Below the pieces are notes generated by a model. That model was not told the origin of the DNA. It was given only the letters and a program-made list of their open reading frames with translations, and did no database searches. From NCBI RefSeq assembly GCF_053078305.1, contig NZ_CP166875.1: DNA of 64,000 nucleotides, one strand, 5' to 3'. This DNA is from a plasmid. The translations under genes and the position numbers were made by a program. This document shows positions 31,215-62,494 of this stretch, piece after piece. How positions within the stretch are numbered: the stretch's first letter is position 1; each line of letters starts with the position of its first letter.

Positions 31215-31575
31215 CCGTTTCTCCATCAATGGAGGAAATCACTGTTGTTTACTCTTACATTGCCTGTCACAACAGCTCTTTCATTGTTAGCTGAAAAGAG
31301 ACTTCCTCCGGCCAGAGCACCAGACGCAGCACCACCTGTTTGTCCGGCCAGGTCTTTGAATAGCACAGATCCATAGTCCCGATGGATTGATGCGAAGGTA
31401 AGTCTCCAGACAAGGCTAACTTGCTGATTATACTTGTTTCAGGCGATATCGCTACTCCCGGAACAATAGACTGTAACGAACAGATTGCGATCAGGTGAAT
31501 ATAACGATATTCTGGTAACGTTAGTTGAAAAGAGACTTCCCCCGGGCCAGAGCCACCCACTCTCCCTGGGATCGC

Positions 31576-39421: not shown

Positions 39422-39754
39422 TCAGCGTCCCATTAAATCTCTTCGCAGAGTATTAGCGAGTTCTGTAATAGCAACGAGAACCTCTGCATACTCTTTATCT
39501 CCCGTGCGTTTTCCTTCCACAAACAGATGCTTCTGCAGGCGACCAAGACGCATCAGCTCTTTCAAAAACTCTTCGTCAATGCGGGCATTTATCTGTTTTC
39601 CCAGCACAGTTTTTCTTATCAGAGTTGAAACTGTCAGTCCGTTTTTTTCTGCCTTTTCTCTAACAATCTCAGCCTCTTCTGGTGAAAAACGAACAGCAAT
39701 GAGGACATTCTTTTGCCGTTTCTCACTGCCACTTCGGGTTTTCTTCTCACTCAT
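39422..39754 (-). CDS. nikA: relaxosome accessory DNA-binding protein (NikA-like)
   Basis: 110 aa, basic; sits directly between relaxase gene and oriT-like inverted repeat. Confidence 0.65.
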   Translation of the reverse strand: MSEKKTRSGSEKRQKNVLIAVRFSPEEAEIVREKAEKNGLTVSTLIRKTVLGKQINARIDEEFLKELMRLGRLQKHLFVEGKRTGDKEYAEVLVAITELANTLRRDLMGR

Positions 39755-41269: not shown

Positions 41270-41660
41270 CATCGTCACGACTGCCGGGTCAGCCAGGTCA
41301 TTTCCCGGAGGAGCGAAGCTCCTTCTGCCGTCCGGGTCTTCGGGGATTTCCCCGCAGTGGACCTTTCCGATGGGGGCCCGTTTACCGCCTCACGGGACAG
41401 CTGTCCGGGGGCGGACGCAAAATTTTTAGCCGGGTTCATGGCTAAAAATTTTGTGGCCGGTGCATCTCACCCTGGACAGATGGAACGGGAGGGGGTTACG
41501 TCTGCCCCCTGGAAAGTCCACAGCGGGAAACAGGCCGCAGGGGTGGCGGCAGGAGGGAAGACTGCTGCGCCATCAGGCGCAGTTTCCTCACACACCGTCA
41601 GGTGTGCAGGGAGCGCAGGTCACGGCGCGACTGAAGAAAAACGACGGCACAACAATGGCA
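41270..41660 (-). promoter_or_regulatory. repeated hairpin element, family A copy 1 (Frpo/ssi-like ssDNA promoter candidate)
   Basis: Shares blocks with 44690-45070 and 60050-60420; contains perfect hairpin AAAATTTTTAGCC / GGCTAAAAATTTT. Confidence 0.4.
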
Positions 41661-43301: not shown

Positions 43302-43687
43302 GGTTCCTCCATCAAATCAGCAGCATCGCAGCAATCATCGCCCAAATCCCCACAACCGAGAGGACAGCAATTGCGTTCAAAGCCATGACAACAATAGCCG
43401 CGTTCTGAGTCACGGCGTATTTCTTCAGCAATCTCTTCTGCGGAAAGGTAATCAAACTCCTCACGGGCCAGTTCCAGGACCAGTAGATGTTGTTCTGTCG
43501 GCAATGTGGCCACAAAATTATCAATAGCAGCACTCAAACGTCGCTGATATAGCTCATAAACAAGACCACAACGGGGCATTAGTTCTTCGGATAATAGTTC
43601 CAGTTTTGAGCGAATTCTGTCAGCGTTGAAAGTGACTTCATCAAAAGACATATGAAAAGCTTTGTCAGTATCAAAACAAGACTTCAT
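43298..43687 (-). CDS. hypothetical acidic protein with Cys-rich C-terminus
   Basis: SD GGAGG before ATG 43687; C-terminus CCHGFERNCCPLGCGDLGDDCCD. Confidence 0.4.
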   Translation of the reverse strand: MKSCFDTDKAFHMSFDEVTFNADRIRSKLELLSEELMPRCGLVYELYQRRLSAAIDNFVATLPTEQHLLVLELAREEFDYLSAEEIAEEIRRDSERGYCCHGFERNCCPLGCGDLGDDCCDAADLMEEP

Positions 43688-43863
43688 TGTTATCTCCAGC
43701 CCTCCCGGGCCCTGAATGAAAGAGAATCTGTTTCCCTTTTCTGTTTTTTGTGGAGACACCATGCAACACAGACGTCGTGATGTTTTTCATCTTGCTCACG
43801 GTTCCTCCTGGTAAAGTACCTGAACACATCCTGCCACCTGCACAGGCAGACGGCAGGGGTTAA

Positions 43864-44130
43864 TCAGTGACAGACCCGTTCAATTTCAAGCGCGCGGAGC
43901 AGGTGGCCCCATTCGCTGACTTTCATGGCGGGGATACGTACCCGCTTCTGCTCACTGCAGCGTCTGGCGATATGACCGCCCATCGCCAGGACGTCCGGGT
44001 TAATCTCATCCGGTGCCAGTTCCTGGCGTCTGAAGCGGGTATGGCGGTGCAGGGGTTTATTCTCCCGCAGGCACTCTTCACGCAGACGCTTTACATACTC
44101 GGCGGTTGCGAAGATAATTGATGGTCTCAT
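43864..44130 (-). CDS. hypothetical basic protein (88 aa)
   Basis: SD GGAG before ATG 44130. Confidence 0.4.
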   Translation of the reverse strand: MRPSIIFATAEYVKRLREECLRENKPLHRHTRFRRQELAPDEINPDVLAMGGHIARRCSEQKRVRIPAMKVSEWGHLLRALEIERVCH

Positions 44131-44222
44131 GGCATAATCTCCATAGTTAGTGAATGAGATGCCGGACTTCCGTACGGGGAAGCGCCGGCGGAGAGAGGCA
44201 GGGTTTATCGCCCTGCTTTTTT

Positions 44223-44657
44223 TCATTCCGGACAGCGACGCAGTGCCAGCGCGAGCGCTTTCATCTTCCAGCCTTCCGGCGTGCGGTACATCACCTTCCA
44301 GTAGCCGTCGATGAACACATAATGGAAGCGCACCTCTTCAGTGCTTTCCGTGGCGATGGCCTCCCTGAAAGAACGGTACTCACGCGCCTCACTGTCCATC
44401 CGGAAACCACTGTCACGTCCGTAATAAGCCGTCACACCGTCCACCGGGTTCTGAAGCGTATGCCCGGCGGGTTTGTCGCAACGGGGACCGAGGCAACGGA
44501 TATCACCGTGTTCAACCAGGGCTTCGGCCTGCTGACCGGTGGCATAGTGGGTATGCAGGATGCGACCGTTCCAGGTCGGCTCACCGTGCAGGTGGCAGTA
44601 AACGGTACGGAACACCCCGTCGCGGCAAAAAACGGAAATCGTGCTGCTGACTGTCAT
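44223..44657 (-). CDS. hypothetical leading-region protein (144 aa)
   Basis: SD AAGGAGA before ATG 44657; directly downstream of hairpin element A2. Confidence 0.45.
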   Translation of the reverse strand: MTVSSTISVFCRDGVFRTVYCHLHGEPTWNGRILHTHYATGQQAEALVEHGDIRCLGPRCDKPAGHTLQNPVDGVTAYYGRDSGFRMDSEAREYRSFREAIATESTEEVRFHYVFIDGYWKVMYRTPEGWKMKALALALRRCPE

Positions 44658-44689
44658 GAAAACGTCTCCTTCTGCTGAATCAGGTCGCC

Positions 44690-45070
44690 GGGCCGACCGA
44701 TTGCTCCCCCGGAGGGGCGAAAGCCCCTTCTGCCGTCCACTTCTTCGGGGTTTCTCCCCGCAGTGGACCTTTCCGATGGGGCAGCGACAGCCACGGCACG
44801 GGGCAGTTGTCCGGGGGCAGACGCAAAAGTTTTTGACGCTTGCGGCAAAAAGTTTTGTGGCTGGTACATCTCCCCCCTGGACGGCTGACACGTGTTGTGG
44901 CCGCTTCAGCCCCCGGAAAGTCCACAGCGGGAAACAGGCCGCAGGGGTGGCGGCGGAAGGGCAGACAACTGCGCCATCAGGCGCAGTTTCCTTACACACC
45001 GTCAGGTGTGCAGGGAGCGCAGGTCACGGCGCGACAGAGGCGGCGCGACCGGAACGGTCGCTGCAAGCCT
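44690..45070 (-). promoter_or_regulatory. repeated hairpin element, family A copy 2
   Basis: Same ordered blocks as copy 1; hairpin CAAAAGTTTTTG / CAAAAAGTTTTG with TTGACG in the stem. Confidence 0.4.
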
Positions 45071-45388
45071 GGTTTTTCAGACATCGGACCGTAGCGGCAG
45101 CCCGAAACCGCGCCAGCGGGTTCGGCGGAGACTGGCGGGTGCGCCAGCAGCTGCCTGTCGGAGTCGGGCCTGACGACCGGATGCCGCCAGGCAGCCGGGA
45201 GCCGAAGGTGTCCCCGCCTCCGGAAATCAGAACAACAGAAACGACATAACAGAAAAATGCCTCACACCATGACGGGCAGGAAGGGCAGCGCCGCAGGCGC
45301 GGCCCTCCTGCATTTCAGGCAGGCGTAAGCCTGCCAGGGTTTTCCGGCGGCCTGGCAGGCCATACCCCCGCCGGAGCGGGGGAGTAAA

Positions 45389-45889
45389 TCACCGACGGAA
45401 CACATGACCGTCAATAAAGGTGAAGGAGTCCAGGAATAAATCCCGCGCATACGCCTCATAGTCAAAATAGAGCGCCACCGTCTCCGGCACGTCAGCCAGC
45501 AGGCCGGTATCACTGGCGAACTCAACCGCAAAAGCCTCCTCACTGTCAGCCTCGCCCCACCAGGCATCGCGGAAGCTGTCAAAATCCGTCTCACCGGTAT
45601 CATCCACCCAGAGACGATAAGCCTCTTCGCAGCCTTCATCCCGTGCCCGGCGGAAGCCTTCAACCCAGGCCCAGTTGATATGACATTCAGAGGCCATATT
45701 CCCCGGGAATCCCTCATAATCCTGAAACATCAGTTCAGGATCGGCTTCATCCTGGTGAAGAGCACGGCAGGCGGCGAAAAAGTCGCGCTCATCATCAAAC
45801 GTGGTCAGGTCAAACCAGCGTCCGGCGATGCTTCCACAGTTGTATTTGTGCCAGGTTCCAACGTATACAGCAGGTGCAACAACAGACAT
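45389..45889 (-). CDS. ardA: antirestriction protein ArdA (DNA mimic)
   Basis: 166-aa highly acidic protein starting MSVVAPAVYVGTWHKYNCGSIAGRWFDLTTFDDE, recognised as ArdA; SD GGAGGA. Confidence 0.85.
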   Translation of the reverse strand: MSVVAPAVYVGTWHKYNCGSIAGRWFDLTTFDDERDFFAACRALHQDEADPELMFQDYEGFPGNMASECHINWAWVEGFRRARDEGCEEAYRLWVDDTGETDFDSFRDAWWGEADSEEAFAVEFASDTGLLADVPETVALYFDYEAYARDLFLDSFTFIDGHVFRR

Positions 45890-46302
45890 TCCCGAATCCT
45901 CCATAGTCACATGTTCTGCGACACCGGGCGGTGCCGTGCCTCCATCTTTGCCGGGCCTGCAGGGATGCAAGGGCGCAAGGAAAGCCGCAGCCCGACGCGC
46001 ACGGCTGACGGGAGTTGGAGGGTGAGACCGCGAAATCTGAGCGGGTGAACGACCGGAAAATCACGGCAGACGGGAAGGAGGGACCGGGTGACCGCAGCGG
46101 TTCATCTTACCTTGCAACCCGCCCGCAGAAGCCCGGCTACGATGGAGGCACGGCACAGCCCGCACACGACGCTGAGGCCACATAACTGAAAACCCACAAG
46201 GCCATGCCCCGCATGGCCGGGTAAAGCGGAGCCTGCGGCGACATCCTTTTGCTCTTTCCGGGGACCGGCTGGAAAAGGCGGAGATTTTCCCCGCCAGCGT
46301 CA

Positions 46303-47073
46303 TCATTTCCGGATTTTCGCCAGTGCATCCGCCATGCTGCGGATTTCAGTCCGGGCTTCCAGGACCACCTCCCGCAGAATATCCCGGTCAAACCAGCGAC
46401 GGGACGGTTCATCAGGTATACGCAGCACATCGCAGGCCAGCCCACTGGACAGGATATGCTCCACACACTCACTGACCAGATACATTTCCACCGACGAAAA
46501 ACGAGCGCCCCGGTTCAGGATGGCATCGAGCACCACGGGCAGGTTTTCGTCGTCTTCATCGAGCCAGCAGGGGTGATCGCTTTCCTTCACAACCAGACGA
46601 AAGCGGCGCGTCTGGCGGGTCAGCAACGTCTGACCGGTGGTAGTCAACGCCGCACGGATACGCCGCGCATCTTCTGCCACCCGGCAACTGACACTGCATA
46701 CTGCATCGCGCACCGCATCAAGAACTGCCCTGATTTCGTCTTCGGTCAGCCATTCTCCGGCATACGGGAAAGACACCTGCGTTCCGTCTGCCGGAAGTAC
46801 CGGCAGCGACTGCCACTGACTGCCGGACAGAACAAGTTCCGCCCCGGTTCCGGTCAGTTTCTGAATGGCAGAGGCCAGGAGCGGCGGCAGTACGCCGCCG
46901 TGACGGTTGATAAGTAACGTCGCCAGCCGGGGCGCATCCAGCCGCACGTAAATGCTGATCCAGCCCGGATACTTCGGGTTCCGCTGGTCAACATCCGTTT
47001 CTTCCGGCCAGCCCTGCGCCAGCAACAGGTTGCTGGCGTGGCGATAAATCAGTGCATTCAGCGTTTCATTCAT
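46303..47073 (-). CDS. hypothetical leading-region protein (256 aa)
   Basis: SD GGGAG before ATG; same strand as ardA. Confidence 0.5.
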
Positions 47074-47117
47074 AATTCATGAACTCCCTGTATCGCCGCC
47101 CGAAGGCGGCGATAACA

Positions 47118-47552
47118 TCAGTCGTTTTCGTGTGTGTTGTTTTTCAGCAGGGTGCGGGCCTGATTAACCACCTCCTGACGGCGGGTGACGCATTCCGGGA
47201 CGGCGAGGCCATGATCCCGGGCGGCCCATTCACGTTTCCACAATGCCTGCTCAGCGGTCTGAATCAGGGACGCCAGCAGTTCAGCAGGGACGGTCACCTG
47301 GCGGTTTTCGCTCACGTTATTGATGATCTCCATCACCGCAGCGGAAGAAATACCGGACTCAATCCGCTGTTCTTCCGGGATGTCCTCCAGGCGTGCCAGG
47401 ACGGTCCTGATTTCATGACCGGTCAGAGAAATTTCCATACCGTCAGCCAGTGCCTGAATCTCTTCCGGGGACCAGACAACCAGCATCAGCGGCGTGTTCT
47501 CCGTATACTGCGCTGCCAGCTCACGGCAGAGCGTTTCGCATGTTCCGTACAT
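47118..47552 (-). CDS. hypothetical leading-region protein (144 aa)
   Basis: SD AAGGAGA before ATG 47552. Confidence 0.45.
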   Translation of the reverse strand: MYGTCETLCRELAAQYTENTPLMLVVWSPEEIQALADGMEISLTGHEIRTVLARLEDIPEEQRIESGISSAAVMEIINNVSENRQVTVPAELLASLIQTAEQALWKREWAARDHGLAVPECVTRRQEVVNQARTLLKNNTHEND

Positions 47553-47565
47553 TCTCGTCTCCTTC

Positions 47566-47787
47566 TCAATCTTTAAAGCACGCATCCAGTTCCAGAATTT
47601 CGGTATATGCCTCCATCAGGAGGCGGTTTGCGCGAAACAACGTCTGACGCACCAGACGTTCCGGCAGGGTGTCAGCATTAAAGCTGTACCGCCGCTCCAT
47701 CTCATTCATGGTTGTACGCAGGTCGCACATGGCATTGGCCACATCCGCCACTTCGGCGCGAAGTTTTTCGTGTCCGGCATAGTTCAT
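47566..47787 (-). CDS. hypothetical small protein (73 aa)
   Basis: SD GGAGG before ATG; start overlaps the methyltransferase stop. Confidence 0.4.
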   Translation of the reverse strand: MNYAGHEKLRAEVADVANAMCDLRTTMNEMERRYSFNADTLPERLVRQTLFRANRLLMEAYTEILELDACFKD

Positions 47788-48471
47788 TTACGCAGCCTCC
47801 GGCATAAACCAGTCATCATTCGCGGCCCCCTGCTGCATGGCCCGTTGTACGGCGGCAAGGCGTTGCTGCCCGGCACGGTGATACTGCTCAAGCAGCTCGA
47901 TACCGATATACCGGCGTCCGGACTGGAAGGCGGCCACGCAGGTTGAGCCGCTGCCTGCAAACGGGTCCAGCACAATTGCGTTCGGGTGTGTGAAGCTCTC
48001 AATCAGCGGTTGCAGGCTGGTAACGGGCTTTTCCGTCGGGTGATGACGATTGCCTGAATATTTCCAGCCCAGCACGTCCGGCAGCGGGTTTTGTGGCAGA
48101 CGTGGACGGCCTTTTGCCAGGATGTAGGCACATTCGTGGCGATAGCCCACATATGCGGCCTTCGATGTGTAGTTTTTGGTGAAGACCAGGTGACCAACAA
48201 CGCTGAATCCCGCATTTTTCCAGGCAGACATAAAACGATCGACGCGATTCCAGCCATAGAAGCTCACCATTAACGCGTCTTTTTTGAGTACGCGGTACAT
48301 CTCATTACAGGCCGGTTGCAGCCATTCATCGGTTTTATCGCCGGCAATGGTACGCCCCTGACGGTCACGAAAACCGACGAGGTACGGCGGGTCGGTGAGG
48401 ATGAAATCAATGGCGTTATCAGGGATACGGGCCATAACATCGATGCAGTTACCGAGGACAAAACGGGACAT
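47788..48471 (-). CDS. orphan DNA methyltransferase (N6-adenine/N4-cytosine class, DPPY motif)
   Basis: Motif IV FILTDPPYL; C-terminal AdoMet-binding segment VLDPFAGSGSTCVAA; SD GAAGGAG; no adjacent restriction enzyme gene. Confidence 0.7.
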   Translation of the reverse strand: MSRFVLGNCIDVMARIPDNAIDFILTDPPYLVGFRDRQGRTIAGDKTDEWLQPACNEMYRVLKKDALMVSFYGWNRVDRFMSAWKNAGFSVVGHLVFTKNYTSKAAYVGYRHECAYILAKGRPRLPQNPLPDVLGWKYSGNRHHPTEKPVTSLQPLIESFTHPNAIVLDPFAGSGSTCVAAFQSGRRYIGIELLEQYHRAGQQRLAAVQRAMQQGAANDDWFMPEAA

Positions 48472-48485
48472 ACCAAACTCCTTCT

Positions 48486-48830
48486 CTTACAGAGGGCACC
48501 GGGAGGGCCCCCCTGTGGTGCCCGTTCCCCGCTGCCTGTGGGCTGTTCACCGCGTCCGGTAACGGGTCAGGCCGACCGTGGAATACCGCAGCCGTCGTCT
48601 TTTTGACGGCAAGGTTATGCCGCGAAAGCGGCTTGAAGGGCGTTCATCAGAAAAGGGCGACGGGCTGGCGTACACTGTCACCGGTGCCAGCCGGGAGCGG
48701 TAAAAGCGCCCGTCCCGTGCCCGGCCGGACGCGGGACACTGACCACAGGCAGCGTTTATGCCGCGCCGCGTCAGCCGGCGCAGTAAAAAGAGGAGCACGG
48801 CGACATCCTTTGTCGGAAAAGAAACGGGCG
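48486..48830 (-). promoter_or_regulatory. long imperfect-hairpin element, family B copy 1 (Frpo/ssi-like ssDNA promoter candidate)
   Basis: Near-identical to 49800-50115; distal arms complementary (CGCTGCCTGTGG ... CCACAGGCAGCG); contains TTGACGG. Confidence 0.45.
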
Positions 48831-48855
48831 GTTGCCCGCCCGTCTCCGTCATACT

Positions 48856-49782
48856 TCATCCGCCATAATGCGCCACCTTGTCGACTATCCACGCAGGTCC
48901 GGTGACTTCCGGCAGCTCATCGTCATCTGTCGGGGAAGACCATTCCAGTTCCCCCCACAGCACATCAACGAGCTCTCCGCGCTCATACAACTGCCAGCCA
49001 CAGAAATTGCAGCCCTGTTCGGCGTACCAGTGCTCCAGCGTGCAGCCGAAACGGCGGCTTAATTCTGCAACAACGTCGCTTTCCGGCTGACACCACGGCG
49101 TGTCGAAATCTACCTGAATGAAGTTTTCCCCCTGACTGCTGATATTCAGGTCATACCCACAAGGCCACTTCACGCCATACCGTTCTGTATACCAGTGATA
49201 TGCAGAAGGAACACCGTTCAGAACACCGCCGTTAAAGCCATTCACTTCAATATCCAGGCGGGTCGGCAAAACCGTCAGCAGGTCAAACGGCATGGTTTTT
49301 TCCGGCAGTACGTTGTCACACAGACGGTTCCACCACACCGATACATCCTCGTTACCCCAGATGTCACACCAGTCACCTCTTTTTGCGGTGAAATGCACAG
49401 TGATAGTTTCCCTGACATCATCCGGTAACTCTTCCCAGCGACGCTGTCCAGTACCGCTCTGCAGCCAGAGTTCATGCAGCATCAGGCAGTTTTGCTCATC
49501 CAGCAGTACACCGTTCTGCAGGTGTGTCAGCCAGCGGGTGAACGCGATATTTTCCGGTGATACAGCACCACGTCCGGCAGCCGTCACTCCGGGGCACTGC
49601 TCAGAGCGGATATTTTCAGTGATCTGCAGAAGTCCGGCACTTCCGGCCAGAAACAGCTGAATACCTTCATTTGTGGCGCGGCGATAAAACGGTGTGACTG
49701 CACCGCTGGCCAGTCGTTTAATCTCAGCAATCTGTGCCGGTTCACCAGAAAAATACATACGATTCGAGCACCAGTTTGGCAT
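48856..49782 (-). CDS. hypothetical leading-region protein (308 aa), Trp/Cys-rich
   Basis: SD GAGGAG before ATG 49782; directly downstream of element B2. Confidence 0.5.
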   Translation of the reverse strand: MPNWCSNRMYFSGEPAQIAEIKRLASGAVTPFYRRATNEGIQLFLAGSAGLLQITENIRSEQCPGVTAAGRGAVSPENIAFTRWLTHLQNGVLLDEQNCLMLHELWLQSGTGQRRWEELPDDVRETITVHFTAKRGDWCDIWGNEDVSVWWNRLCDNVLPEKTMPFDLLTVLPTRLDIEVNGFNGGVLNGVPSAYHWYTERYGVKWPCGYDLNISSQGENFIQVDFDTPWCQPESDVVAELSRRFGCTLEHWYAEQGCNFCGWQLYERGELVDVLWGELEWSSPTDDDELPEVTGPAWIVDKVAHYGG

Positions 49783-49799
49783 GGGAATTCTCCTCACAG

Positions 49800-50115
49800 G
49801 AGCACCGGGAGGGAGCCCCTGTGGCGCCCGTTCCCCGCTGCCTGTGGGCTGTTCACCGCGTCCGGTAACGGGTCAGGCCGACCGTGGAATACCGCAGCCG
49901 TCGTCTGTTTGACGGCAAGGTTATGCCGCGAAAGCGGCTTGAAGGGCGTTCATCAGAAAAGGGCGACGGGCTGGCGTACACTATCACCGACGCCAGCCGG
50001 GAGCGGTAAAAGCGCCCGTCCCGTGCCCGCCGGACGCGGGACACTGACCACAGGCAGCGTTTATGCCGCGCCGCGTCAGCCGGCGCAGTAAAAAGAGGAG
50101 CACGGCGACATCCTT
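49800..50115 (-). promoter_or_regulatory. long imperfect-hairpin element, family B copy 2
   Basis: About 97% identical by eye to copy 1 over roughly 310 bp. Confidence 0.45.
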
Positions 50116-50159
50116 TTCCCCTGAACATCCGTCAGCCTTTCTCTGCGGCAAGATCAATC

Positions 50160-50385
50160 CTTAACAGAAAAAAAACCAACAAGCACCCACATAAAAAACA
50201 AAAAACCCAAGCAACACCCACACAAACAAAAAAAACACCCAGAAAACACCCAAAGACAAACAACAATAAAGTAATGAAACCCATAAAACACCCAAAAAAA
50301 GACAAAAAAGATTAAATAGCACTTGAACGCCACCAAAAAAATACTATTATGGGTATAGACACCCAAACGACACCCAAAAGAGGAT
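50160..50385 (+). repeat. parC-like centromere: A/C-rich iterons (ACACCCA and variants)
   Basis: At least 8 direct copies of (A)ACACCCA in a C/A-rich tract directly upstream of the ParM-like gene. Confidence 0.45.
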
Positions 50386-50388
50386 TTT

Positions 50389-51360
50389 ATGATTAAGATA
50401 TTCTGTGATGATGGTTCTACAGCGGTTAAGCTGGCATGGTTTGAAAACGGGGAACTAAAAACCCTCATTAGTCACAATTCTTTCAAGGAAGGCTGGAACA
50501 CATCAGGATTTGGCAGTGAGAAAACTTATAATTACTTAGTCGATGGAGAGAAATATGCGTTTGATACACATAACCCATCAGCAATAGTCACAACCAATAT
50601 TGAGTTTCAATATAGTGTAGAAAATCGTCTCGCTGTACATCACGCACTACTACAAACAGGAATGGAGCCTGGGGATGTAGAGCTTTGGGTTACATTACCT
50701 GTATCTGAATATTTCACTACAGATATGCAAGAGAATTCGGATAACATAAGAAAAAAAATAGAAAACCTGAAAAAAGAAATTACACTGAATAAAGGCAGCG
50801 TATTTTCAATCAAGAAAGTTCATGTATTACCCGAGTCTCTACCTGCAGCGTTGACCTCTCTCGAAGAGGATAAAGTCAGTGATCTTGAAACGTCCCTTGT
50901 CGTCGATCTTGGTGGAACAACTCTTGATTGTGGCGCTATAGCTGGCAGATATAAAAATGTAACACAAGTATCCGGAGAACCTGGTCTTGGCGTAACTCTG
51001 GTAACAACGGCGACAATGAATGCCCTGAAACAGGCAGGAACGCATACCAGCTACTATATTGCAGATCAACTGGTTAGAAACAGAAATGCTGATGATTTAT
51101 TCGAAATTGTTGTTAATGACAGCAGTAAAATAGATGATGTGAAATCAGTAATTGAAAACAGTATTACAAGACTTTCAGACAGAGTTATAAATCATTTACA
51201 CTCGTACAAAGGGATAAATCGTATATACATGACTGGTGGTGGTGCGGAACTAATCTACCCTGCAATAAAAAAAGCATTCCCCTTATTAAAGGATAAAGTA
51301 AAAATTTTACCAGATGCGCAATTAGCCCTTGTTATTTCTATTGCTGAAATAAATCGATAA
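50389..51360 (+). CDS. parM: actin-like plasmid segregation ATPase (ParM/StbA family)
   Basis: N-terminal IFCDDGSTAVKLAW and phosphate-2 motif VVDLGGTTLD; overall resemblance to R1 ParM; 323 aa. Confidence 0.75.
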   Translation: MIKIFCDDGSTAVKLAWFENGELKTLISHNSFKEGWNTSGFGSEKTYNYLVDGEKYAFDTHNPSAIVTTNIEFQYSVENRLAVHHALLQTGMEPGDVELWVTLPVSEYFTTDMQENSDNIRKKIENLKKEITLNKGSVFSIKKVHVLPESLPAALTSLEEDKVSDLETSLVVDLGGTTLDCGAIAGRYKNVTQVSGEPGLGVTLVTTATMNALKQAGTHTSYYIADQLVRNRNADDLFEIVVNDSSKIDDVKSVIENSITRLSDRVINHLHSYKGINRIYMTGGGAELIYPAIKKAFPLLKDKVKILPDAQLALVISIAEINR

Positions 51361-51371
51361 TGAGGTACAGG

Positions 51372-51923
51372 ATGAGTGATGAACGTCGTAAATTATGGCT
51401 ATACTTATATCCTGATGAGCCACAGCAAAAATCCGCAATAGAAACCATTGAAGAAATACCTCAAAGACAACGTTCTGATTTCTTCAGAGATAGTATTGTT
51501 GCAGGTATTGCATTATCAAAACTCGATAAACGATTACCTGCACTTGTATCTATGTTACTACAGCAAGATAGTAATATAGATACTCTTGTACGTATTTTAA
51601 AAATACTATTCCCCAAGCTTGATATTGACTCAACGGAAGATAAATCTACACTCTGTGCCGTTGCTTGGCAAAAAAGATGTCGGGATGAATTACAACAAGG
51701 CACACCATGGTCTGCCTGGTTTGCGATTAGTGAGGATGAATATAATCATCATCTTAATCATCCAGAATCAAACAGTCAGGTACGTGCATTATGGGCTTAT
51801 GATGAAAACGAGCAGAAAAAGGATATACAGGATAAAGAGAGAACGCCCTTTCCGGAGGCCAACACCAATACAAGTTCAGAAACATTGAGTAATGCTAAAA
51901 AATTATTTGGTAATTCAAATTAA
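51372..51923 (+). CDS. putative partition adaptor (ParR/StbB-position)
   Basis: Immediately follows the ParM-like gene; no motif recognised, assignment by position only. Confidence 0.35.
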   Translation: MSDERRKLWLYLYPDEPQQKSAIETIEEIPQRQRSDFFRDSIVAGIALSKLDKRLPALVSMLLQQDSNIDTLVRILKILFPKLDIDSTEDKSTLCAVAWQKRCRDELQQGTPWSAWFAISEDEYNHHLNHPESNSQVRALWAYDENEQKKDIQDKERTPFPEANTNTSSETLSNAKKLFGNSN

Positions 51924-51936
51924 TTATTCAAAGAAA

Positions 51937-51958
51937 ATCCCGGTCGAAGGGCCGGGAT
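51937..51958. terminator. bidirectional hairpin between convergent parR-like gene and helicase
   Basis: ATCCCGG-tcgaaggg-CCGGGAT. Confidence 0.45.
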
Positions 51959-52033
51959 GTTTACACGTTAACCACCCTGCAATTCTGCCACTCCTGATGC
52001 GGAATAACAGGACAGGACCGGGAACAGTCAGGC

Positions 52034-53560
52034 TCACTTTTTTCTCCGTCGTCTGCCACGCGCTCTGCTGCCTGTATTTTTTTCCCGGGATGCCGGCTCA
52101 CTCTGCAATGCCGGGGGAGGTACCTGTTTCAGGAGCTGGCGCAGCACACTGTTGAGGATCAGCGTCCGCCGAGCCCGTGTGGCAGCCACATAGAGCAGGT
52201 TGAGTTCATCCCGCAGTTTCTCTTCAAATTCCTGCACATTGTCCGTTCCCGGCTGCTCAAGCTCCTGAAAATCCTCATGCAGCCTCACTGTGTCCCATTC
52301 CAGGCCTTTGGCCCTGTGCACCGTGGTGACAGTCACGGCAGCAGCCTTTTCGTCACGGACCTCATATTTTCGCAGCGTGGCCACATGTTCCGGCAGCGGC
52401 GAAAACTTCTGAATGATAGCCACTGACTGCAGCATTTCCGCGTCCCGGCTTGCCTTTGCCGTCGCCTCATAGTCAGAGAACGACTCCCACGCAGCAAAGC
52501 GAGCCGGCTCCCGGATTTTTTCCGTCATTCCCACAGAAAACCACCACAGATCCAGCAGGCGGGCAACCGGCCAGGCATTCATACCGTTGATCCAGTATGT
52601 TTTCTGCTTCCTCCGGGCCGCGTGAAGCGCAGCACCAATCACGCCCATCACTGTCCGGCACAGCACCGCACAGTGAGGCATATTCCTCTCGGGTTTCAGC
52701 AACAGACGGTCATCACCGCCAAGCCCACAGACTTTTTTCGTCTCCCCGTCCAGAGCCAGCACAGCATTTGCCACATCTGCCACACAGGGACCGAAACGGA
52801 AACTGCCGGTAAGCCACAGCCTGTCTGCCGTGGCCAGAGAGGGGGTATTCAGCGCATCCACGGCACCCCGGAAGCGATAAATCTGCTGATGTGGATCACC
52901 CACCATCACCAGCGTTCCACGGTGGCGCAGGACCAGGTCGGAGATCACCGGACTGGCGTCCTGGGCTTCATCAAACAGGATTTCATCGTACTTTGCGGAC
53001 AGATCCGGCTGCGAAAGCTGGTACAGCTTCAGATACAGATCATGAACGACCGGAAAGTCATCACTGCGGTCGCACATTCTTTGCCAGAGACGCACGGCCA
53101 GCGGCAGCACCTCTGCTGCGCGCAGTGGCGGCCTGGCACGGACATGCACCTCAGACAACGTCGTGTCCGCACTGTTCATGAAAGCCTGTAGGGTTTCCCT
53201 GACGGCCGCAGCCAACGGCCACTGGCGCAGTGAAAGCGCCCCGGCGATATCAGTAATGCCCAGGGAAGGCACGAGACGGTGGGAGTAATGTCGTCCAAAT
53301 TCCGGCCACGCCAGCTGATGTGCAGTCCGGCAACAGACATTCACCGGGAAGCGTGCCTGAGCCTCCTCCCGGACAGACCGGTTGAATGCGATATAGAGCA
53401 TACGGCGTTCAGGCCGGGCCTGCGCATAAGCCACCAGTGTGGCTGTTTTGCCGGTGCCGGCAAAAGCCCTGACAACCAGTCGCTGTCCCTGCCAGTTAAT
53501 GACAGCCTGTTGTTCAGCGGTCGGAGCGTGACGGATTTTCCTGACCGGGTGCTGAGTCAT
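52034..53560 (-). CDS. UvrD/Rep-like superfamily-1 DNA helicase (about 508 aa)
   Basis: Walker A AGTGKTAT, motif II FDEAQD, C-terminal VTTVHRAKGLEWDTV; ATG overlaps the upstream stop (ATGA). Confidence 0.7.
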   Translation of the reverse strand: MTQHPVRKIRHAPTAEQQAVINWQGQRLVVRAFAGTGKTATLVAYAQARPERRMLYIAFNRSVREEAQARFPVNVCCRTAHQLAWPEFGRHYSHRLVPSLGITDIAGALSLRQWPLAAAVRETLQAFMNSADTTLSEVHVRARPPLRAAEVLPLAVRLWQRMCDRSDDFPVVHDLYLKLYQLSQPDLSAKYDEILFDEAQDASPVISDLVLRHRGTLVMVGDPHQQIYRFRGAVDALNTPSLATADRLWLTGSFRFGPCVADVANAVLALDGETKKVCGLGGDDRLLLKPERNMPHCAVLCRTVMGVIGAALHAARRKQKTYWINGMNAWPVARLLDLWWFSVGMTEKIREPARFAAWESFSDYEATAKASRDAEMLQSVAIIQKFSPLPEHVATLRKYEVRDEKAAAVTVTTVHRAKGLEWDTVRLHEDFQELEQPGTDNVQEFEEKLRDELNLLYVAATRARRTLILNSVLRQLLKQVPPPALQSEPASREKNTGSRARGRRRRKK

Positions 53561-54183
53561 TTTGCCGTTGCGTCCTCCCCGTCCGTCATCCCGGCCAGAG
53601 CGACCTGTTTTTTCTCCCACCGTCGGTCCCGGATGGCCAGCCAGCGTTGAGCATTTTTTGCCTCATCCTCAGAAACCAGCCCGGCAGGCTTACCGTCGAG
53701 GTCATAGCGGGTGGCACCGGTGACAGCGGTACGCAACAGATAGACACGGCGGGAGGTGATACAGGATACGGCACAGTCCCATTCATCCCGGGTGAGTCCG
53801 GCTTCAGGGTGCTCAGCCAGCCAGGCAGGAATATCGCGGGAGATACCGACCCTGAGAGGCAGAAAACCGCCGCCTTCAGCGCGAAGATGCGGGAAAATCG
53901 CCTTGACCTTTTCCATGCACTGGTCGGTGAACTCCCGTGTCCAGTGCTCTCTGAGGGGTCTGCGTGGTGGTCTTCCTTTCCTTTTTTTTCCGACGGCAGC
54001 AGGCGCAGGAGACGCATCCTGGATGGGGGCTGGCAGCTGCTCATCAGCAGCAGCCGGTGGTGCCCCCACTTCCGGTACAGGCGAAATGACAGTCTCTGTT
54101 TTATCGACGACAGGTGGTGGTGAAATAACGCGACGTTTTTTCACCACAATGACGGGCGTTTTCTTTTCCTGATTCCTGGCCAT
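53557..54183 (-). CDS. ProQ/FinO-domain RNA-binding protein (FinO-like)
   Basis: Basic/Pro-rich N-terminus; C-terminal domain aligns by eye with FinO (PLRVGISRDI ... GATRYDLDGKP ... EDEAKNAQRWL). Confidence 0.55.
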   Translation of the reverse strand: MARNQEKKTPVIVVKKRRVISPPPVVDKTETVISPVPEVGAPPAAADEQLPAPIQDASPAPAAVGKKRKGRPPRRPLREHWTREFTDQCMEKVKAIFPHLRAEGGGFLPLRVGISRDIPAWLAEHPEAGLTRDEWDCAVSCITSRRVYLLRTAVTGATRYDLDGKPAGLVSEDEAKNAQRWLAIRDRRWEKKQVALAGMTDGEDATAK

Positions 54184-54635
54184 TAATACCCCGACAAGAT
54201 TAAATTCTGGTTAACGATATCATTATACAGCGAATAATATAATTATGGTTCACGTATTATTATCCGTGACTCTTTCCTGGTAACTCCCGCATAATAACTT
54301 CACTTTTCCAGTATTCCAGAAGATGATGTTTTTTCCTCGATAATAAAAATGTGCCAATATGGAAATAAGAAATCGGATTTTTTATCAGCATACGCAAATT
54401 TTCAGATAACAATGAATACAGATGTATTTTATATACACAGATAAAACCGCGCAACAGACATAAATATGACAGTAGCATGAAAAAGCAGAGAGAGACAGGG
54501 TGATACAGAAAAGTAACTATTTTTTTAGCTATAGTATTATTGGTTTTACCTATTTTCGTGATTGTGTTTCTGTATATTGGGGGTTCGCGCCCATTTCCTC
54601 TAAAAGTCTCACCTTGCTTAGGTAATTAATTGAAT

Positions 54636-55373: not shown

Positions 55374-58300
55374 ATGCAGAAGTACAAGAAAAGAATTAGT
55401 ATATTAACAAAAAGTGAAATAAATGAATTATATCAAGTCCCCTCTTTTAATCCTGTTGAAAGGGATGAGTTTTTTTCGCTGGATATCAGCCTTAAAAGAG
55501 AAATTGATAAAATAATAAATATAGAAAGCAGGGTGTATCTGATATTAATAACAGGGTATTTCAGATATAAACCTGTGATTCCTGAATTTACATTAAAAGA
55601 CGTAAAAAGGGATGTGAAATATATTATCCAGACATATTATAAAAACGAAAGTACTAATCTCAATTTAAACATACCTAAAAGTACAAAGTACCGCCTTGTT
55701 AAACGAATGCTTTCTACTCTAGGATTTGAACAACTCACCCCATCTATAAAAAATGAGTTAAGTGAACGTCTGAATGATGTTGCTACTATATGTATGGAAC
55801 CAAAATATATTTTTGATGAATTACTTGCTTTTTTAGGACAGCGGCGTATAGCTCTTCCTGGATACAGTACTGTCCAGAACCTCGTTTCAGATGCTTTAAA
55901 CTTTGAAAGGAAAAGGACAATTAATATTTTGTCAAAGAGAATTTATCCTGCCACTGCACAAAAGATTACATCCATCATCCATGATGATGGAATATTAAAT
56001 TCCATCAGGGGATATAATTATAGCACGAGAGACTTCTCAGCATCAGAAATAGAAAATGAATTAAGAACTCACAATGTGATAAGTAGTATTTACTATGAAA
56101 TAAAAGATATAATTAATTCATTAGGTATATCCCAGGGAAACATGGAGTACTATGCAACTATCGTAAAACACAGTACAACATTCAGACTTAAGCGACACCC
56201 TAAATGGCAAGGAATACTTTATTTGTGCTGCTACTTGTACTTCAGATACAGAGAGATAAATGATAAAATAATCACAGCCTTCAGATATTTAGTAAAAAAA
56301 CATAAAGACGCTTCAGTTTTGTTTGCAAAAGCTCGGGCAACAGAGGAAATAGATCTAATAAATAAAAAGCTTAAGTTTGCGAGTAAAATATTTAACTTCT
56401 TCGTTGATAGTAACATTGAAGACAGCATCCCTTTTGGATATGTTCGTGAAAAGGTTTTTTCACTTATATCGAAAGATGATATGCATCTTGTGAGTGAATT
56501 TTTTGACAAAAATAAAATCGATGTAATTGAATATCAATGGCAGTATATTGACAGCCATCACCTTAAGATCGCCAATTCAATCCGAAAGCTTTTTCTGGCT
56601 ATAGATATAGTATATGACAACGAGAAGTCTGTTATTGGCCAGCAAATTACTGCTGCCAAGGATGATCTCAGAGGAAAAGGAAAGCTGGATGCTAAGGATC
56701 TGAGGGTAATTCATCCATCCGAGAAAAATTACATTGTAAAAGAAGGAGAAATTAACACTCAACGATTCGAATTTCATATGTACAGCAGGGTATCTAACCA
56801 TCTGGAAAACGGTGTCTTTTATGCTGCGGAGAGTGAACAAAACAAGAGACTGGAAGATGATCTCATAGAACGAAGTTACTGGCATAAGAATAAATCGATT
56901 TTGATAGAGAAAACAGGCCTTGAACGACTTATCACACCAATAACGCAGACTCTTAATGAGCTGGAGAATACCTTTAGCGATAAACTGGCTCGTATAACCA
57001 TTGGAATAAACTCAGATGCTAATGAGTTTGTGAAAAAACAACCACACTCCAACAGATTACAGTGGAGTCTGGCCAGTAAAAAATGGAAGACCAGCATCGA
57101 TAATCCGATTTACAATCAGATAAAAAATATCGGAATAGTTGACGTAATGAAGTATGTAAACAATGAGACGAATTTTTTGTCTGTGTTTAATGCCATATCA
57201 TCCAGGAAAAATAATCTTGAAGCTGACTATAATGACCTTCTTGCCTGTATATTTGGTAATGGCGCAAATTATGGTGTTCACAGAATGGCATCTGCATCAG
57301 ACCGTAGTATTGGAATACTACGTGATGTGAATGACAAATTCATTCGTCCAGAAACAACAGGAATGGCCAACACAGTAATATCTGATGCAATTGCAAATCT
57401 TTCTGTATATAAATACTGGACGATAAATGAAGATTCTCCATTTGGAAGTGTTGATGGGCAGAAGCACACTTGCAGAATAAATACATTTAAAGCCCGTTAT
57501 TCTGCCAAGTATTTCAGAAAGGGGAAAGGGGTTTCTGCGATGACACTGGTATCTAATCATGTGCCATTATCAACTGTGGTAATTTCTCCAAATGAATATG
57601 AAGGTCATTTTGCATTTGACTTGTTATATAACAACACCAGTGAAATACAACCAAAGTCATTAGCGACTGACAATCATGGTATAAACAACGTTAATTTTGC
57701 GATTCTTGACATTTTTGGCTATCAGTTTTCACCACGTTATGCAAAATTCAAGAAAATATTTAATGAATTATTTGATGTTATACTGGAGAGTGATAAACTC
57801 ATTATAAAACTTAAAAAACAATTTAACTTTAAGCTCATTGAACATGAATGGGAAAACATCCAACATATTATTTGTTCTTTAAGCAGAAAAACAACCATTC
57901 AAAGTACGGTTGTTAAGAAGTTATCTAATACAAAGCGTAGCAACAAGACATTAGCAGCACTTCGGGAGTATGACCGAGTTATAAAATGCATATATGTCCT
58001 GGATTATGCTGACAATAAAACCTTAAGGCAATTTGTGCAACAAGCACTGAACAGAGGTGAAGCTTATCATCAACTAAGAAGAGCAATAGCATCAGTAAAT
58101 GGAAATCAATTTCGCGGTGGTAATGACTACCAAATAGATCAATGGAACGACTGTGCGAGGTTAATAGCTAATTGTGTAATCTATTATAATTCAGCAATAT
58201 TATCCAGGCTGGTCGAGAAATTTGAAAAAGAAAATAATAAAAAAGCGATAGATGTTCTGGCTAACTTATCCCCAGTAGCATGGAGACACATTCTCCTTGG

Positions 58301-58412
58301 AGGGAATTATTCTTTTGAAGATCAAGTTGCGATCACAAATTTGGACAGTCTTTTGGAGGGAGTAGACCCACTAAGTGATATCGGAGATATTGAGTCCGAA
58401 TATGACGGTTAA
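55374..58412 (+). CDS. tnpA: Tn3-family transposase TnpA (1012 aa)
   Basis: Size, N-terminal region and position inside the IR-bounded element. Confidence 0.8.
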   Translation: MQKYKKRISILTKSEINELYQVPSFNPVERDEFFSLDISLKREIDKIINIESRVYLILITGYFRYKPVIPEFTLKDVKRDVKYIIQTYYKNESTNLNLNIPKSTKYRLVKRMLSTLGFEQLTPSIKNELSERLNDVATICMEPKYIFDELLAFLGQRRIALPGYSTVQNLVSDALNFERKRTINILSKRIYPATAQKITSIIHDDGILNSIRGYNYSTRDFSASEIENELRTHNVISSIYYEIKDIINSLGISQGNMEYYATIVKHSTTFRLKRHPKWQGILYLCCYLYFRYREINDKIITAFRYLVKKHKDASVLFAKARATEEIDLINKKLKFASKIFNFFVDSNIEDSIPFGYVREKVFSLISKDDMHLVSEFFDKNKIDVIEYQWQYIDSHHLKIANSIRKLFLAIDIVYDNEKSVIGQQITAAKDDLRGKGKLDAKDLRVIHPSEKNYIVKEGEINTQRFEFHMYSRVSNHLENGVFYAAESEQNKRLEDDLIERSYWHKNKSILIEKTGLERLITPITQTLNELENTFSDKLARITIGINSDANEFVKKQPHSNRLQWSLASKKWKTSIDNPIYNQIKNIGIVDVMKYVNNETNFLSVFNAISSRKNNLEADYNDLLACIFGNGANYGVHRMASASDRSIGILRDVNDKFIRPETTGMANTVISDAIANLSVYKYWTINEDSPFGSVDGQKHTCRINTFKARYSAKYFRKGKGVSAMTLVSNHVPLSTVVISPNEYEGHFAFDLLYNNTSEIQPKSLATDNHGINNVNFAILDIFGYQFSPRYAKFKKIFNELFDVILESDKLIIKLKKQFNFKLIEHEWENIQHIICSLSRKTTIQSTVVKKLSNTKRSNKTLAALREYDRVIKCIYVLDYADNKTLRQFVQQALNRGEAYHQLRRAIASVNGNQFRGGNDYQIDQWNDCARLIANCVIYYNSAILSRLVEKFEKENNKKAIDVLANLSPVAWRHILLGGNYSFEDQVAITNLDSLLEGVDPLSDIGDIESEYDG

Positions 58413-58721: not shown

Positions 58722-59069
58722 TTATATGCGGATTCCAGCGCGTTCCGTTCGTTTCGGGTGCTTCCAGTTGATACCTTCAAGAAGCATGGATAACTGAGCC
58801 GGAGTAAGGTGCACCTTGCCGTCACGGGTGACTGGCCAGACGAAGCGGCCCCGCTCCAGGCGTTTGGTGAAGAGGCACAGTCCGTCACTGTCAGCCCACA
58901 ACACTTTTATCTGGTCACCCCGGCGTCCGCGGAAGATGAACAGGTGTCCGGAGAACGGGTCATCCTTCAGGACGTTCTGAACTTTTGATGCCAGGCCGTT
59001 AAAGCCATTTCGCATATCGGTGATACCTGCAACCAGCCAGATACGCGAACCTGCAGGGAGAGATATCAT
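58722..59069 (-). CDS. IS66-family accessory protein TnpB (orf2)
   Basis: 115 aa with RIWLVAGITDMRNGFNGL motif. Confidence 0.65.
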   Translation of the reverse strand: MISLPAGSRIWLVAGITDMRNGFNGLASKVQNVLKDDPFSGHLFIFRGRRGDQIKVLWADSDGLCLFTKRLERGRFVWPVTRDGKVHLTPAQLSMLLEGINWKHPKRTERAGIRI

Positions 59070-59746
59070 CAGTGGCTGCTCCCTTTTATTTCGCGGATAA
59101 GTGTCTGTAATAACGCCGGCGTCAGTTTACCTTTAAGCCTGAGAGTTCCGGCCGGCAGAACCAGCTCACAACACAGACTGTCGGACGGTGTATTTATCTG
59201 CTCTGGTTCCTGTGCGGGGGCCGGGATTTTATTATCCGGCTCCGGCGTTAACGTCACGGGAAGCAGTGCCGGCATATTTTTTCCGGAAGGCAGCAGGCCA
59301 CCTTTCCGGTATTGATGGCGCCAGTTGAAGAGCAGGTTATCGTTGATTCCGTTTTCCCGGGCGATCTGCGCCACACAGGCTCCGGGCTGCAGTGACTGCT
59401 CCACTAAGGCGATTTTAAACTCATAAGGGAAGTTGGGCCGCCGGGGACGTTTTTTTACCACGGGGGCTTCGGATATAACGGTGCTTTCAGGACGTACGAC
59501 TGGTACCGTGGAAAATTGTCCGTAAAGGCAGGCATCAAGTTCCTGCTCCGACATGCCTGCGGGCAAAGGCCACGAAAGGCCAGCTCTCCGAAAGCGCACG
59601 AACATACTACAAACTGTTGATTTTGGTACACCCAGGCGACGCCCGGCCACAACCCGGGGTAAATGTTCTTCAAAGTGAAGACGTAAAGCTTCAGTGATCC
59701 AGGTCCGGTGTTTCATACGATAGTGTCCATTAAAAATGATGGACAT
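59069..59746 (-). CDS. IS66-family orf1 (HTH transposase accessory protein); true start may be 59716
   Basis: C-terminal half FPYEFKIALVEQSLQPGACVAQIARENGINDNLLFNWRHQYR typical of IS66 orf1; stop overlaps tnpB start. Confidence 0.6.
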   Translation of the reverse strand: MSIIFNGHYRMKHRTWITEALRLHFEEHLPRVVAGRRLGVPKSTVCSMFVRFRRAGLSWPLPAGMSEQELDACLYGQFSTVPVVRPESTVISEAPVVKKRPRRPNFPYEFKIALVEQSLQPGACVAQIARENGINDNLLFNWRHQYRKGGLLPSGKNMPALLPVTLTPEPDNKIPAPAQEPEQINTPSDSLCCELVLPAGTLRLKGKLTPALLQTLIREIKGSSH

Positions 59747-60856: not shown

Positions 60857-61015
60857 CTACTTACCGGATTCGTAAGCCATGAAAGCCGCCACCTCCCTGT
60901 ATCCGTCTCTGTAACGAATCTCGCACAGCGATTTTCGTGTCAGATAAGTAAATATCAACAGTGTGAGACACACAATCAACACACACCAGACAAGAGAGCT
61001 GCGTGGTAGTTTCAT
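60857..61015 (-). CDS. hok: Hok/Gef-family type I toxin
   Basis: Encodes [52 protein letters not shown]. Confidence 0.8.
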
Positions 61016-61072
61016 GGCCTTCTTCTCCTTGCGCAAAGCGCGGTAAGAGGCTATCCTGATGTTGTCAGACAT
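60857..61072 (-). CDS. mok-like overlapping leader frame
   Basis: In-frame upstream extension ([19 protein letters not shown]-) of hok, as in hok/mok/sok loci. Confidence 0.4.
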
Positions 61073-61289
61073 ATGGGATGCCTCGTGGGTTAATGAAAAA
61101 TTAACTACGGGGCTATCTTCTTTCTGCCACACAACACGGTAACAAACCACCTTCACGTCATGAGGCAGAAAGCCTCAAGCGCCGGGCACATCATAGCCCA
61201 TATACCTGCACGCTGACCACACTCACTTTTCCTGAAAATAACCCGCTCATTCAGGCTGTTTACGGGTAATCTGTGTGATTGTTGCCGCA

Positions 61290-62009
61290 TCACGCCGCCT
61301 CCCGGAGTTTGTTCGGCACCATCCACCGCTCCATCTCACGGACAGCGTGACCCGCCTCCCTTGCTGCCATACCTGCCTCTGCGATGACCTGCCAGAATGG
61401 CATATCCTGCCACTGCCAGCGTTCCATCCCGGCCAGTGACGGAAAACGCTCACCCCACTGCCAGAACAGGGTTTCCAGGTCATGCTCTGCCACCCGGTCA
61501 CTCCAGCGTGCATACCAGCTTCCGACTGTTTCCGGTGAATGGAACGCCAGTTCGATTTCAGCCTGAGCGACCAGCGTCTGGTACGCACGGGCTTTCTGCT
61601 CTGCCTCCCGTGCCTGCTGGCGGCTGTACTTCTGCATGACCAGCACGGATTTATGGCGACTGCGTTCCCTGACACGGAACCGCACCGACGGGAACAACCG
61701 CTCTGCTGCATCACCGGGAAGGGGAAGGAGGCAGACCTCGCCCTGTGTTTCAATCAGCACATCGACGGCATACAGCCACTGAGAACGGTTGCCGCGCAGT
61801 TCTTCTGCGGTCAGGGACGGCATGAAAAATCGCAGGTCAGACAGCGAAATCCTGCGGCTTCCGTTCAGACAGCGGAAAAACGCCCCCGCATACGGATATT
61901 CCGCCAGCGTGTTACCCTGGTGGCGGCGTTTTTCTGTCTCCGCCACCGCCCGCCATGCGGCCTGTTGCTCTGTGCTGAGAGGAACCAGTGCCTGTGAACG
62001 TGCGCTCAT
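61290..62009 (-). CDS. psiA: plasmid SOS-inhibition protein PsiA
   Basis: 239 aa starting [22 protein letters not shown]; coupled downstream of psiB. Confidence 0.8.
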
Positions 62010-62440: not shown

Positions 62441-62494
62441 CACGGTATCTCCCTTGCTGCCGCCCCGTCTCCGGCGGGGCGGTGTGGTTGTTCA

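Follow-up and report, generated by a model that had tools for sequence, protein, structure and literature searches.

A DUF1281/Api92-like gene directly behind a second copy of the ssp3 hairpin at the distal edge of a plasmid leading region

The DUF1281 gene and its transcription unit

The stretch of DNA analysed here (the window) comprises 64,000 nucleotides (nt) of a plasmid (NCBI RefSeq assembly GCF_053078305.1, contig NZ_CP166875.1); the subject of this report is a minus-strand gene at positions 48856-49782 that encodes a 308-residue protein of the DUF1281/Api92-like family, together with the hairpin directly ahead of it, a close homolog of the class 3 single-stranded DNA (ssDNA) promoter ssp3. 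The gene, its control elements and the adjoining methylase unit are arranged as follows:

48856..49782, minus strand: DUF1281/Api92-like protein (other database names YubB, YccB, YafB, YfaB, YfdA and W0052)
49790-49795, minus strand: Shine-Dalgarno sequence GAGGAG, read from the sequence, with a spacer of 7 nt to the ATG
49802..50116, plus strand: ssp3 copy 2 (predicted class 3 ssDNA promoter), 315 nt, starting 20 nt upstream of the DUF1281 ATG
48817..48847, minus strand: intrinsic terminator just 3' of the stop codon, with a GC-rich stem, a GCAA loop and TTTCTTTT
48496..48811, plus strand: ssp3 copy 1, promoter of the methylase operon, 97.5% identical to copy 2
47788..48471, minus strand: orphan adenine DNA methyltransferase of the M.EcoGIX type (PRK13699; NCBIfam NF010253, 5e-151), a separate unit

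Read in the direction of the gene, the DUF1281 unit runs from the ssp3 hairpin through GAGGAG and the open reading frame (ORF) to the intrinsic terminator; since this terminator follows directly after the ORF, the unit is monocistronic and self-contained. The terminator RNA folds at -28 kcal/mol and its sequence is kept in the F plasmid and in pESBL; a consensus terminator scan did not list it.

The coding sequence consists of 308 codons and a TGA stop, with the ATG at 49782-49780. The initial annotation of this locus had described a 308-residue ORF behind a strong GAGGAG site and had called its product rich in tryptophan and cysteine, and both descriptions were confirmed: the site stands 7 nt ahead of the ATG, and the protein contains 16 Trp (5.2%) and 10 Cys (3.2%), with binomial P values of 3e-5 and 4e-3 against the generally known Trp and Cys frequencies typical of E. 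coli. The Shine-Dalgarno sequence is retained where plasmids carry another upstream element, and homology ends just upstream of it. The 308-residue start is the right one, because the N-terminal motif MPNWC.NR is found without exception in 23 homologues (44-92% identity) and because the alignment with Api92, a homologue of solved structure, starts from residue 3; some RefSeq records give a 300-residue version from Met9, and the pESBL record has 308 residues. Eleven of the 16 tryptophans are kept in at least 22 of the 23 homologues. The "paired cysteines" of the initial annotation fared unevenly: the pair C258/C261 is conserved, as are Cys5 and Cys155, and the cysteine of the other motif proposed, CGYD (C208), is kept in only 4 of the 23. 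The ratios of nonsynonymous to synonymous substitution rates against five orthologues range from 0.10 to 0.39; the gene is real and under purifying selection.

The ssp3 hairpin ahead of the gene

The two ssp3 copies form 315-nt direct repeats on either side of the DUF1281 gene. Copy 2 is 97% identical over 314 nt to the element that precedes the M.EcoGIX gene in pESBL (L007:9443-9756) and 96% identical to the F element, while copy 1 likewise reaches about 97% to the pESBL-EA11 element and 96% to the F element; a hairpin directly ahead of the gene had been anticipated, and it is this element of the class 3/ssp3 type that was found there. Folded as ssDNA, the plus strand of copy 2 reaches -93 kcal/mol (z = -4.5 against shuffled sequences) and forms a long, imperfect hairpin, in which the main stem pairs 49836-49877 with 50024-50059; relative to the Klebsiella copies described below, this main stem shows five compensatory pairs, in a comparison of two diverged lineages only that holds few independent events. 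The hairpin lies in the transferred (plus) strand, and transcription from it would run on the minus strand into DUF1281.

According to the study on pESBL (PMC12672017), the class 3 promoter is located upstream of M.EcoGIX, its start site was determined by 5' rapid amplification of cDNA ends, and its operon was strongly induced in fresh transconjugants, as seen by RNA sequencing (zygotic induction). A second report (bioRxiv 10.64898/2026.01.09.698686) names the element ssp3 and describes restored expression when ssp3 replaced ssp2 in F. Copy 2 shares the long hairpin and the strand relative to oriT with these class 3 elements of pESBL and F (PMC12672017; 10.64898/2026.01.09.698686); in contrast to pESBL and F, where ssp3 drives the methylase operon only, the plasmid studied here has a second copy fused 20 nt upstream of the DUF1281 ATG. 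Homology to the pESBL element thus makes copy 2 a predicted promoter. On the coding strand between parM and the DUF1281 ORF, no sigma-70 consensus promoter was found; one weak hexamer candidate on that strand has a 19-nt spacer and falls partly in a loop.

The hairpin had been likened to Frpo in the initial annotation. The likeness stands in principle, as between one ssDNA promoter and another: in Frpo and the ssi1-3 elements (class 1), the promoter is formed solely by folding of the transferred strand and is shut down once the second strand has been synthesised. It does not extend to the sequence; blastn of ssp3 against the window and the F and pESBL loci returned ssp3 copies only and no similarity to the Frpo/ssi class 1 elements, and the class 1 copies in the window (41304-41634 and 44708-45038) constitute a separate repeat family without a match to ssp3.

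Two minus-strand ORFs (48547-48852 and 49853-50128), listed as "hypothetical protein" in related RefSeq records, lie wholly inside the ssp3 copies and are probably artefacts of GC-rich palindromic sequence. Within the Klebsiella ssp3 copy ahead of the methylase, no gene is called.

Position in the leading region

The minus-strand genes nikB (36690-39410) and nikA (39422-39754) place oriT at about 39.8-40.0 kb. The leading region measures roughly 10 kb, and its genes all lie on the minus strand and read toward oriT; the plus strand is therefore their template and, given the established polarity of IncI-type transfer, also the transferred strand. Outward from oriT, the order begins with a DUF4942 gene, a class 1 hairpin, an Rpn nuclease gene, small ORFs and a further class 1 hairpin, and continues with ardA (45389-45889) and a class 2 hairpin just beyond it. 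Next come a 256-residue ORF, DUF1380, a 73-residue ORF, the methylase gene and, beyond the methylase, ssp3 copy 1; last are DUF1281, ssp3 copy 2 beyond it, and then the divergent parMR genes. DUF1281 is the leading-region gene farthest from oriT and the last to enter the recipient. Its placement had been compared to that of ardA-type early genes, and the comparison is apt in that both have the same orientation, the transferred strand as template and a hairpin directly ahead.

The methylase keeps its place next to and downstream of DUF1281 in every lineage examined (F, pESBL, IncI-gamma, Salmonella and Klebsiella plasmids). DUF1281 genes adjoin orphan methylases from two different Pfam families, the second of which was found in an integrative element.

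Distribution of the ssp3-DUF1281 junction and an alternative hairpin

The stretch with the gene matches at least 5000 plasmid records; among the matches listed, 4330 cover at least 80% of the stretch, the plasmids are nearly all enterobacterial, and those that were typed belong to IncF and the I-complex. When a query of 300 nt across the ORF start and the hairpin was searched and the best-scoring 5000 plasmid records were evaluated, the ssp3-DUF1281 junction was present in 366 of them, including IncK2/Z, IncFIA/FII and IncFIA/FIC/X1 plasmids, each time adjoining parM. In most of the other records, homology reaches only just beyond the Shine-Dalgarno sequence and breaks off 13-16 nt upstream of the ATG. 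In F, pESBL, IncI-gamma and a Salmonella lineage, the place of ssp3 is taken by a hairpin of about 180 nt, here termed hairpin X, which is unrelated to ssp1, ssp2 and ssp3 and is not present in the window:

L004:3664-3870: hairpin X
L003:8636-8842: hairpin X of F
L007:8262-8471: hairpin X of pESBL
L012:5771-5985: hairpin X

The stem arms of hairpin X are invariant between lineages in which the DUF1281 proteins are only 60% identical, with 2-3 compensatory changes near the apex; hairpin X may act as another ssDNA promoter or as a site for priming.

Klebsiella plasmids with a DUF1281 protein of 48% identity carry ssp3-like elements ahead of both DUF1281 and the methylase:

L014/L015:5735-5953 and 7594-7872: Klebsiella ssp3-like copies

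Compared with the E. coli copies, the two carry an identical set of five main-stem substitutions, which points to duplication or gene conversion inside each lineage. Since an ssp3-like element precedes DUF1281 also in these diverged Klebsiella plasmids, the pairing is recurrent and not a one-off accident.

Protein family, fold and conserved residues

The initial annotation had called the protein unknown, a description that has to be revised. Pfam recognises DUF1281 (PF06924) at residues 30-206 (E = 1.6e-46) and DUF1281_C (PF18406, "ferredoxin-like domain in Api92-like protein") at residues 209-282 (E = 1.3e-14), and Api92 of Yersinia pseudotuberculosis, with crystal structure 2IJR, is a homologue (phmmer 1e-46, profile 4e-70) whose three-dimensional fold the protein shares. 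The family is also listed among those enriched in leading regions: in a survey of plasmid leading regions (Samuel et al., Nature 2024; PMC11541004), DUF1281 is family 27 of the 100 largest leading-region-enriched families, the same family as the protein studied here, and is entered as "Uncharacterized; DUF1281" with 1949 members, on the transferred strand (T-strand), at a median of 22 ORFs from oriT and with significant enrichment. The survey records no matches of family 27 in its anti-CRISPR or anti-restriction sets and, in its accessible text and tables, draws no link from the family to a hairpin promoter (PMC11541004). A profile search of 1.84 billion representative proteins retrieved 3457 clusters at E <= 1e-3. 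In protein clusters of the family, many entries labelled "partial" are probably cut off at contig ends. Api92 itself is a structural-genomics entry without assigned function, and, unlike the protein encoded here, it lacks the C258/C261 pair and the Pro-Asn of MPNWC.

The architecture consists of a ferredoxin-like (ACT-like) domain interrupted by a helical insert of about 175 residues, followed by an acidic tail that runs to the HYGG end. In the N-terminal part, strand 1 (residues 4-12) and helix 1 (15-26) precede the all-helical insert (about 32-202); in the C-terminal part, strands 212-217 and 221-229, helix 235-244, strand 248-255 and a hairpin at 260-278 complete what is a split ferredoxin-like domain. 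The family motifs MPNWC.N, GFNG, KWP, DFDTPW, HWYAE.G..FCG and C-terminal H(Y/F)GG are all present and are invariant or nearly so in the 23 homologues; the invariant residues are M1-P2-N3-W4-C5, N7, R8, GFNG (182-185), K205, P207 and DFDTPW (225-230), and, toward the C-terminus, H251, W252, E255, G257, C261, G262 and the terminal GG. Distant members retain MPNWC.N, G(T/V)KW, F(D/E)(T/S)(A/P)W, Y.E.G..F.G and, in most cases, the terminal (Y/F)GG; not all of them have His251 or the C258/C261 pair. In the fold, the N-terminal strand lies beside strands 221-229 and 248-255, and because this topology puts the strands side by side, the conserved polar residues probably occupy one face of the sheet.

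Soluble and strongly acidic, the protein has a net charge of -22 and an isoelectric point (pI) of about 4.4-4.5. The acidity is family-wide: the median net charge is -25 among plasmid forms and -24 among 41 phage short forms, which are about 195 residues long. About 40 phage proteins (loci L016-L068, retrieved with the patterns MPNWC[ASC]N and DFDTPW; about 150-270 residues) start with MPNWC(S/A)N, share WG(T/S)KW, F(D/E)(T/S)AW.PP and Y.E.G..(F/A)G with DUF1281 and have a median pI of 4.25. When the neighbours of 53 phage loci were clustered, the recurrent neighbour families had no known function in PHROGs.

Scans with NCBIfam and PADLOC returned no match for the DUF1281 protein, so that the statement that it contains no recognisable catalytic motif holds as far as it was tested, and PHROGs returned families of "unknown function" only. 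Homology to replication or maintenance proteins was checked and none was found; nor was sequence or fold homology to anti-restriction and anti-defence proteins (ArdA, KlcA/ArdB, Ocr, Acr and others). When PDB sequences were searched with a profile (E <= 10), Api92 alone was found, besides non-significant thioredoxin-like matches. These matches, to the stretch VDFDTPWC.P (E 0.05-1.5), were rejected: Cys231 occurs in only 5 of the 23 homologues and the second cysteine is missing. A tautomerase-like catalytic N-terminal proline, or a Cys-Glu-Lys triad, was likewise considered and is without fold support. Literature searches for DUF1281, Api92, YubB, YccB, PF06924 and PF18406 found no functional study.

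Proposed role at plasmid entry and its alternatives

By analogy with the class 3 operon of pESBL, the plasmid would arrive in the recipient as ssDNA, ssp3 copy 2 would fold in the plus strand, and host RNA polymerase would initiate on the folded element; the strong ribosome-binding site would then permit a burst of DUF1281 protein, until synthesis of the complementary strand abolished the hairpin and switched the gene off. Such transient, entry-time transcription of DUF1281 from ssp3 copy 2 is expected with a probability of about three in four, because the copy is near-identical to a validated element. The protein would aid establishment by neutralising a barrier in the recipient, through binding of a host protein, a nucleic acid or a small molecule at the conserved face of the ACT-like domain. 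This establishment or anti-defence role, proposed from context only, is given a probability of about one half. It is argued for by the enrichment of the family in leading regions, the T-strand orientation, the early promoter and the conserved, extreme acidity; by the adjacency to protective methylases and the presence of the family across phages, plasmids and integrative elements; and by the retention of the gene between 315-nt direct repeats that are able to delete it.

ArdA and Ocr are acidic early anti-restriction proteins, and the acidity of DUF1281 resembles theirs. The likeness would also include early, ssDNA-promoter-driven expression in the leading region, which for DUF1281 is a prediction; the proteins differ in that DUF1281 has neither sequence nor structural similarity to the ArdA/Ocr type.

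Several observations weigh against early expression and an establishment role. On the arms of the ssp3 hairpin, no pairs of -35/-10 hexamers with at least 8 of 12 matches were found. The six induced pESBL operons named in PMC12672017 do not include DUF1281, and the DUF1281 gene of pESBL sits behind a different hairpin, hairpin X; for these two reasons, early expression may not be general for the family, and it may differ between the ssp3 and hairpin X arrangements. The F copy of the gene (L003:8811-9781) is frameshifted into two ORFs of 183 and 145 residues, which accounts for its absence from the F gene table, and the gene is therefore dispensable at least in laboratory settings. The literature searches found no experiment on the DUF1281 protein. 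Finally, the invariant N-terminus and the conserved Cys, Lys and Glu residues look more like an active or ligand site than like the surface of a DNA mimic.

This last point leads to the alternative that the protein is an enzyme and not a binder, acting on a host or plasmid target through Cys5 and Glu255 (with His251 or Lys205), or through an N-terminal proline exposed after removal of the initiator methionine. MPNWC.N is invariant in the plasmid forms and, used as a search pattern, retrieved the approximately 40 phage short forms; K205, D/E227 and E255 are conserved in distant members, and the topology sets these residues on adjacent strands. The tautomerase-like and triad arrangements lack support from the fold, as stated above. 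An enzymatic function is unlikely, though it deserves consideration.

A function as an anti-restriction protein that mimics DNA, in the manner of ArdA and Ocr, and fills the DNA-binding groove of restriction enzymes or other defence enzymes that target DNA, is improbable. The acidity is strong and conserved (pI about 4.4-4.5), the acidic linker DDDELPE lies ahead of the C-terminus, and the gene forms a predicted early-expression unit beside a protective methylase and upstream of ardA; yet no fold similarity to ArdA, Ocr or other mimics was found, the conserved residues are aromatic and polar core motifs and not surface acidic arrays, and the plasmid already carries ardA and the methylase.

In a further reading, ssp3 copy 2 would serve mainly as a priming site for the complementary strand, or be a by-product of recombination at the leading-region edge, with DUF1281 as a passenger whose function has nothing to do with entry. 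Frpo-type transcripts are able to prime DNA synthesis, copy 2 stands at the leading region's distal end, adjoining parMR, most plasmids have a different hairpin at this place, and repeat-mediated rearrangements have occurred in this same plasmid. Against this, the Shine-Dalgarno sequence is preserved at the junction and the hairpin is correctly oriented, 20 nt from the ATG; the diverged Klebsiella plasmids have acquired or kept the same pairing, and leading regions show a statistical enrichment of the family, on the T-strand. This reading also appears improbable.

That DUF1281 acts as an accessory or regulatory partner of the neighbouring ssDNA methyltransferase, for example in its targeting, its timing or the handling of a cofactor, is very improbable: the gene stands directly upstream of the methylase in every plasmid lineage examined, a different methylase family occurs near it in an integrative element and both units share the promoter type here, but M.EcoGIX was characterised in expression vectors that carried its cloned ORF (PMC7736820), F combines an intact methylase with a frameshifted DUF1281, the junction query is matched over its hairpin half alone in some records, and a terminator separates the two genes, each of which is a transcription unit of its own.

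To return to the establishment role, it could be extended to the whole MPNWC superfamily, that is, to the members on plasmids and integrative elements and to the short "YubB ferredoxin-like" proteins of phages and giant viruses. These would make up a large, so far unrecognised class of counter-defence effectors of mobile elements, in which the extreme N-terminus and the C-terminal sheet together form a common site for ligand binding or catalysis, and on plasmids they would be delivered at entry from ssDNA promoters, either ssp3 or, in F and IncI1, hairpin X as a fourth class; this extension is speculative and, on balance, doubtful.

The protein family and the promoter class have each been described already; their coupling in this plasmid, and the alternative conserved hairpin in most other plasmids, appear to be undescribed. 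Among the uncharacterised families with enrichment in plasmid leading regions, DUF1281 is one of the larger, and, as ssp3 is validated and portable, its fusion to DUF1281 in some lineages predicts that the protein would be present within minutes of entry. The ssp3-driven and hairpin-X-driven alleles offer a natural comparison for a role in the establishment of resistance plasmids. If the protein does neutralise a host barrier, it would represent a new fold among anti-defence proteins; as matters stand, it is a member of a well-catalogued family in a slightly unusual regulatory setting, which is no surprise.

Further observations on the plasmid

At 45897-46248, collinearity between the window and its best match, pDW54_2 (NZ_CP038793.1), is broken. 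The two matching blocks (43349-46248 and 45897-54580) have about 350 nt in common, an overlap that coincides exactly with the class 2 ssDNA promoter repeat, and the klcA-ssb-parB-psiB-psiA segment is wholly missing there relative to pDW54_2. The class 2 repeat matches both the klcA-upstream and the ardA-upstream elements of pESBL, and an overlap at this repeat would be the expected product of recombination between two class 2 copies. Farther along the window, a Tn3-family transposase (55374-58412) and an IS66 TnpA (59069-59746) are followed by a second leading-region-like block (61013-64000) with sok RNA, psiA, psiB and a parB-like gene; its identity to pDW54_2 is about 87%. The replicon therefore carries the missing SOS-inhibition genes, or diverged versions of these, at another place.

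Just beyond parMR, a minus-strand gene (52034-53620) encodes a UvrD-like helicase of 528 residues, and a UvrD-family helicase is also encoded near a distant DUF1281 homologue in locus L008. Host UvrD has been reported to help melt ssDNA promoter hairpins during plasmid conversion.

Rfam matches included sok antitoxin RNA and an AgrB-like antisense RNA (coordinates 27136-27292, 30792-30879 and 30268-31356). The AgrB-like RNA lies inside tandem direct repeats of about 690 nt, in a stretch whose aligned counterpart in pDW54_2 holds the duplicated DinQ-like dqlB toxin loci.
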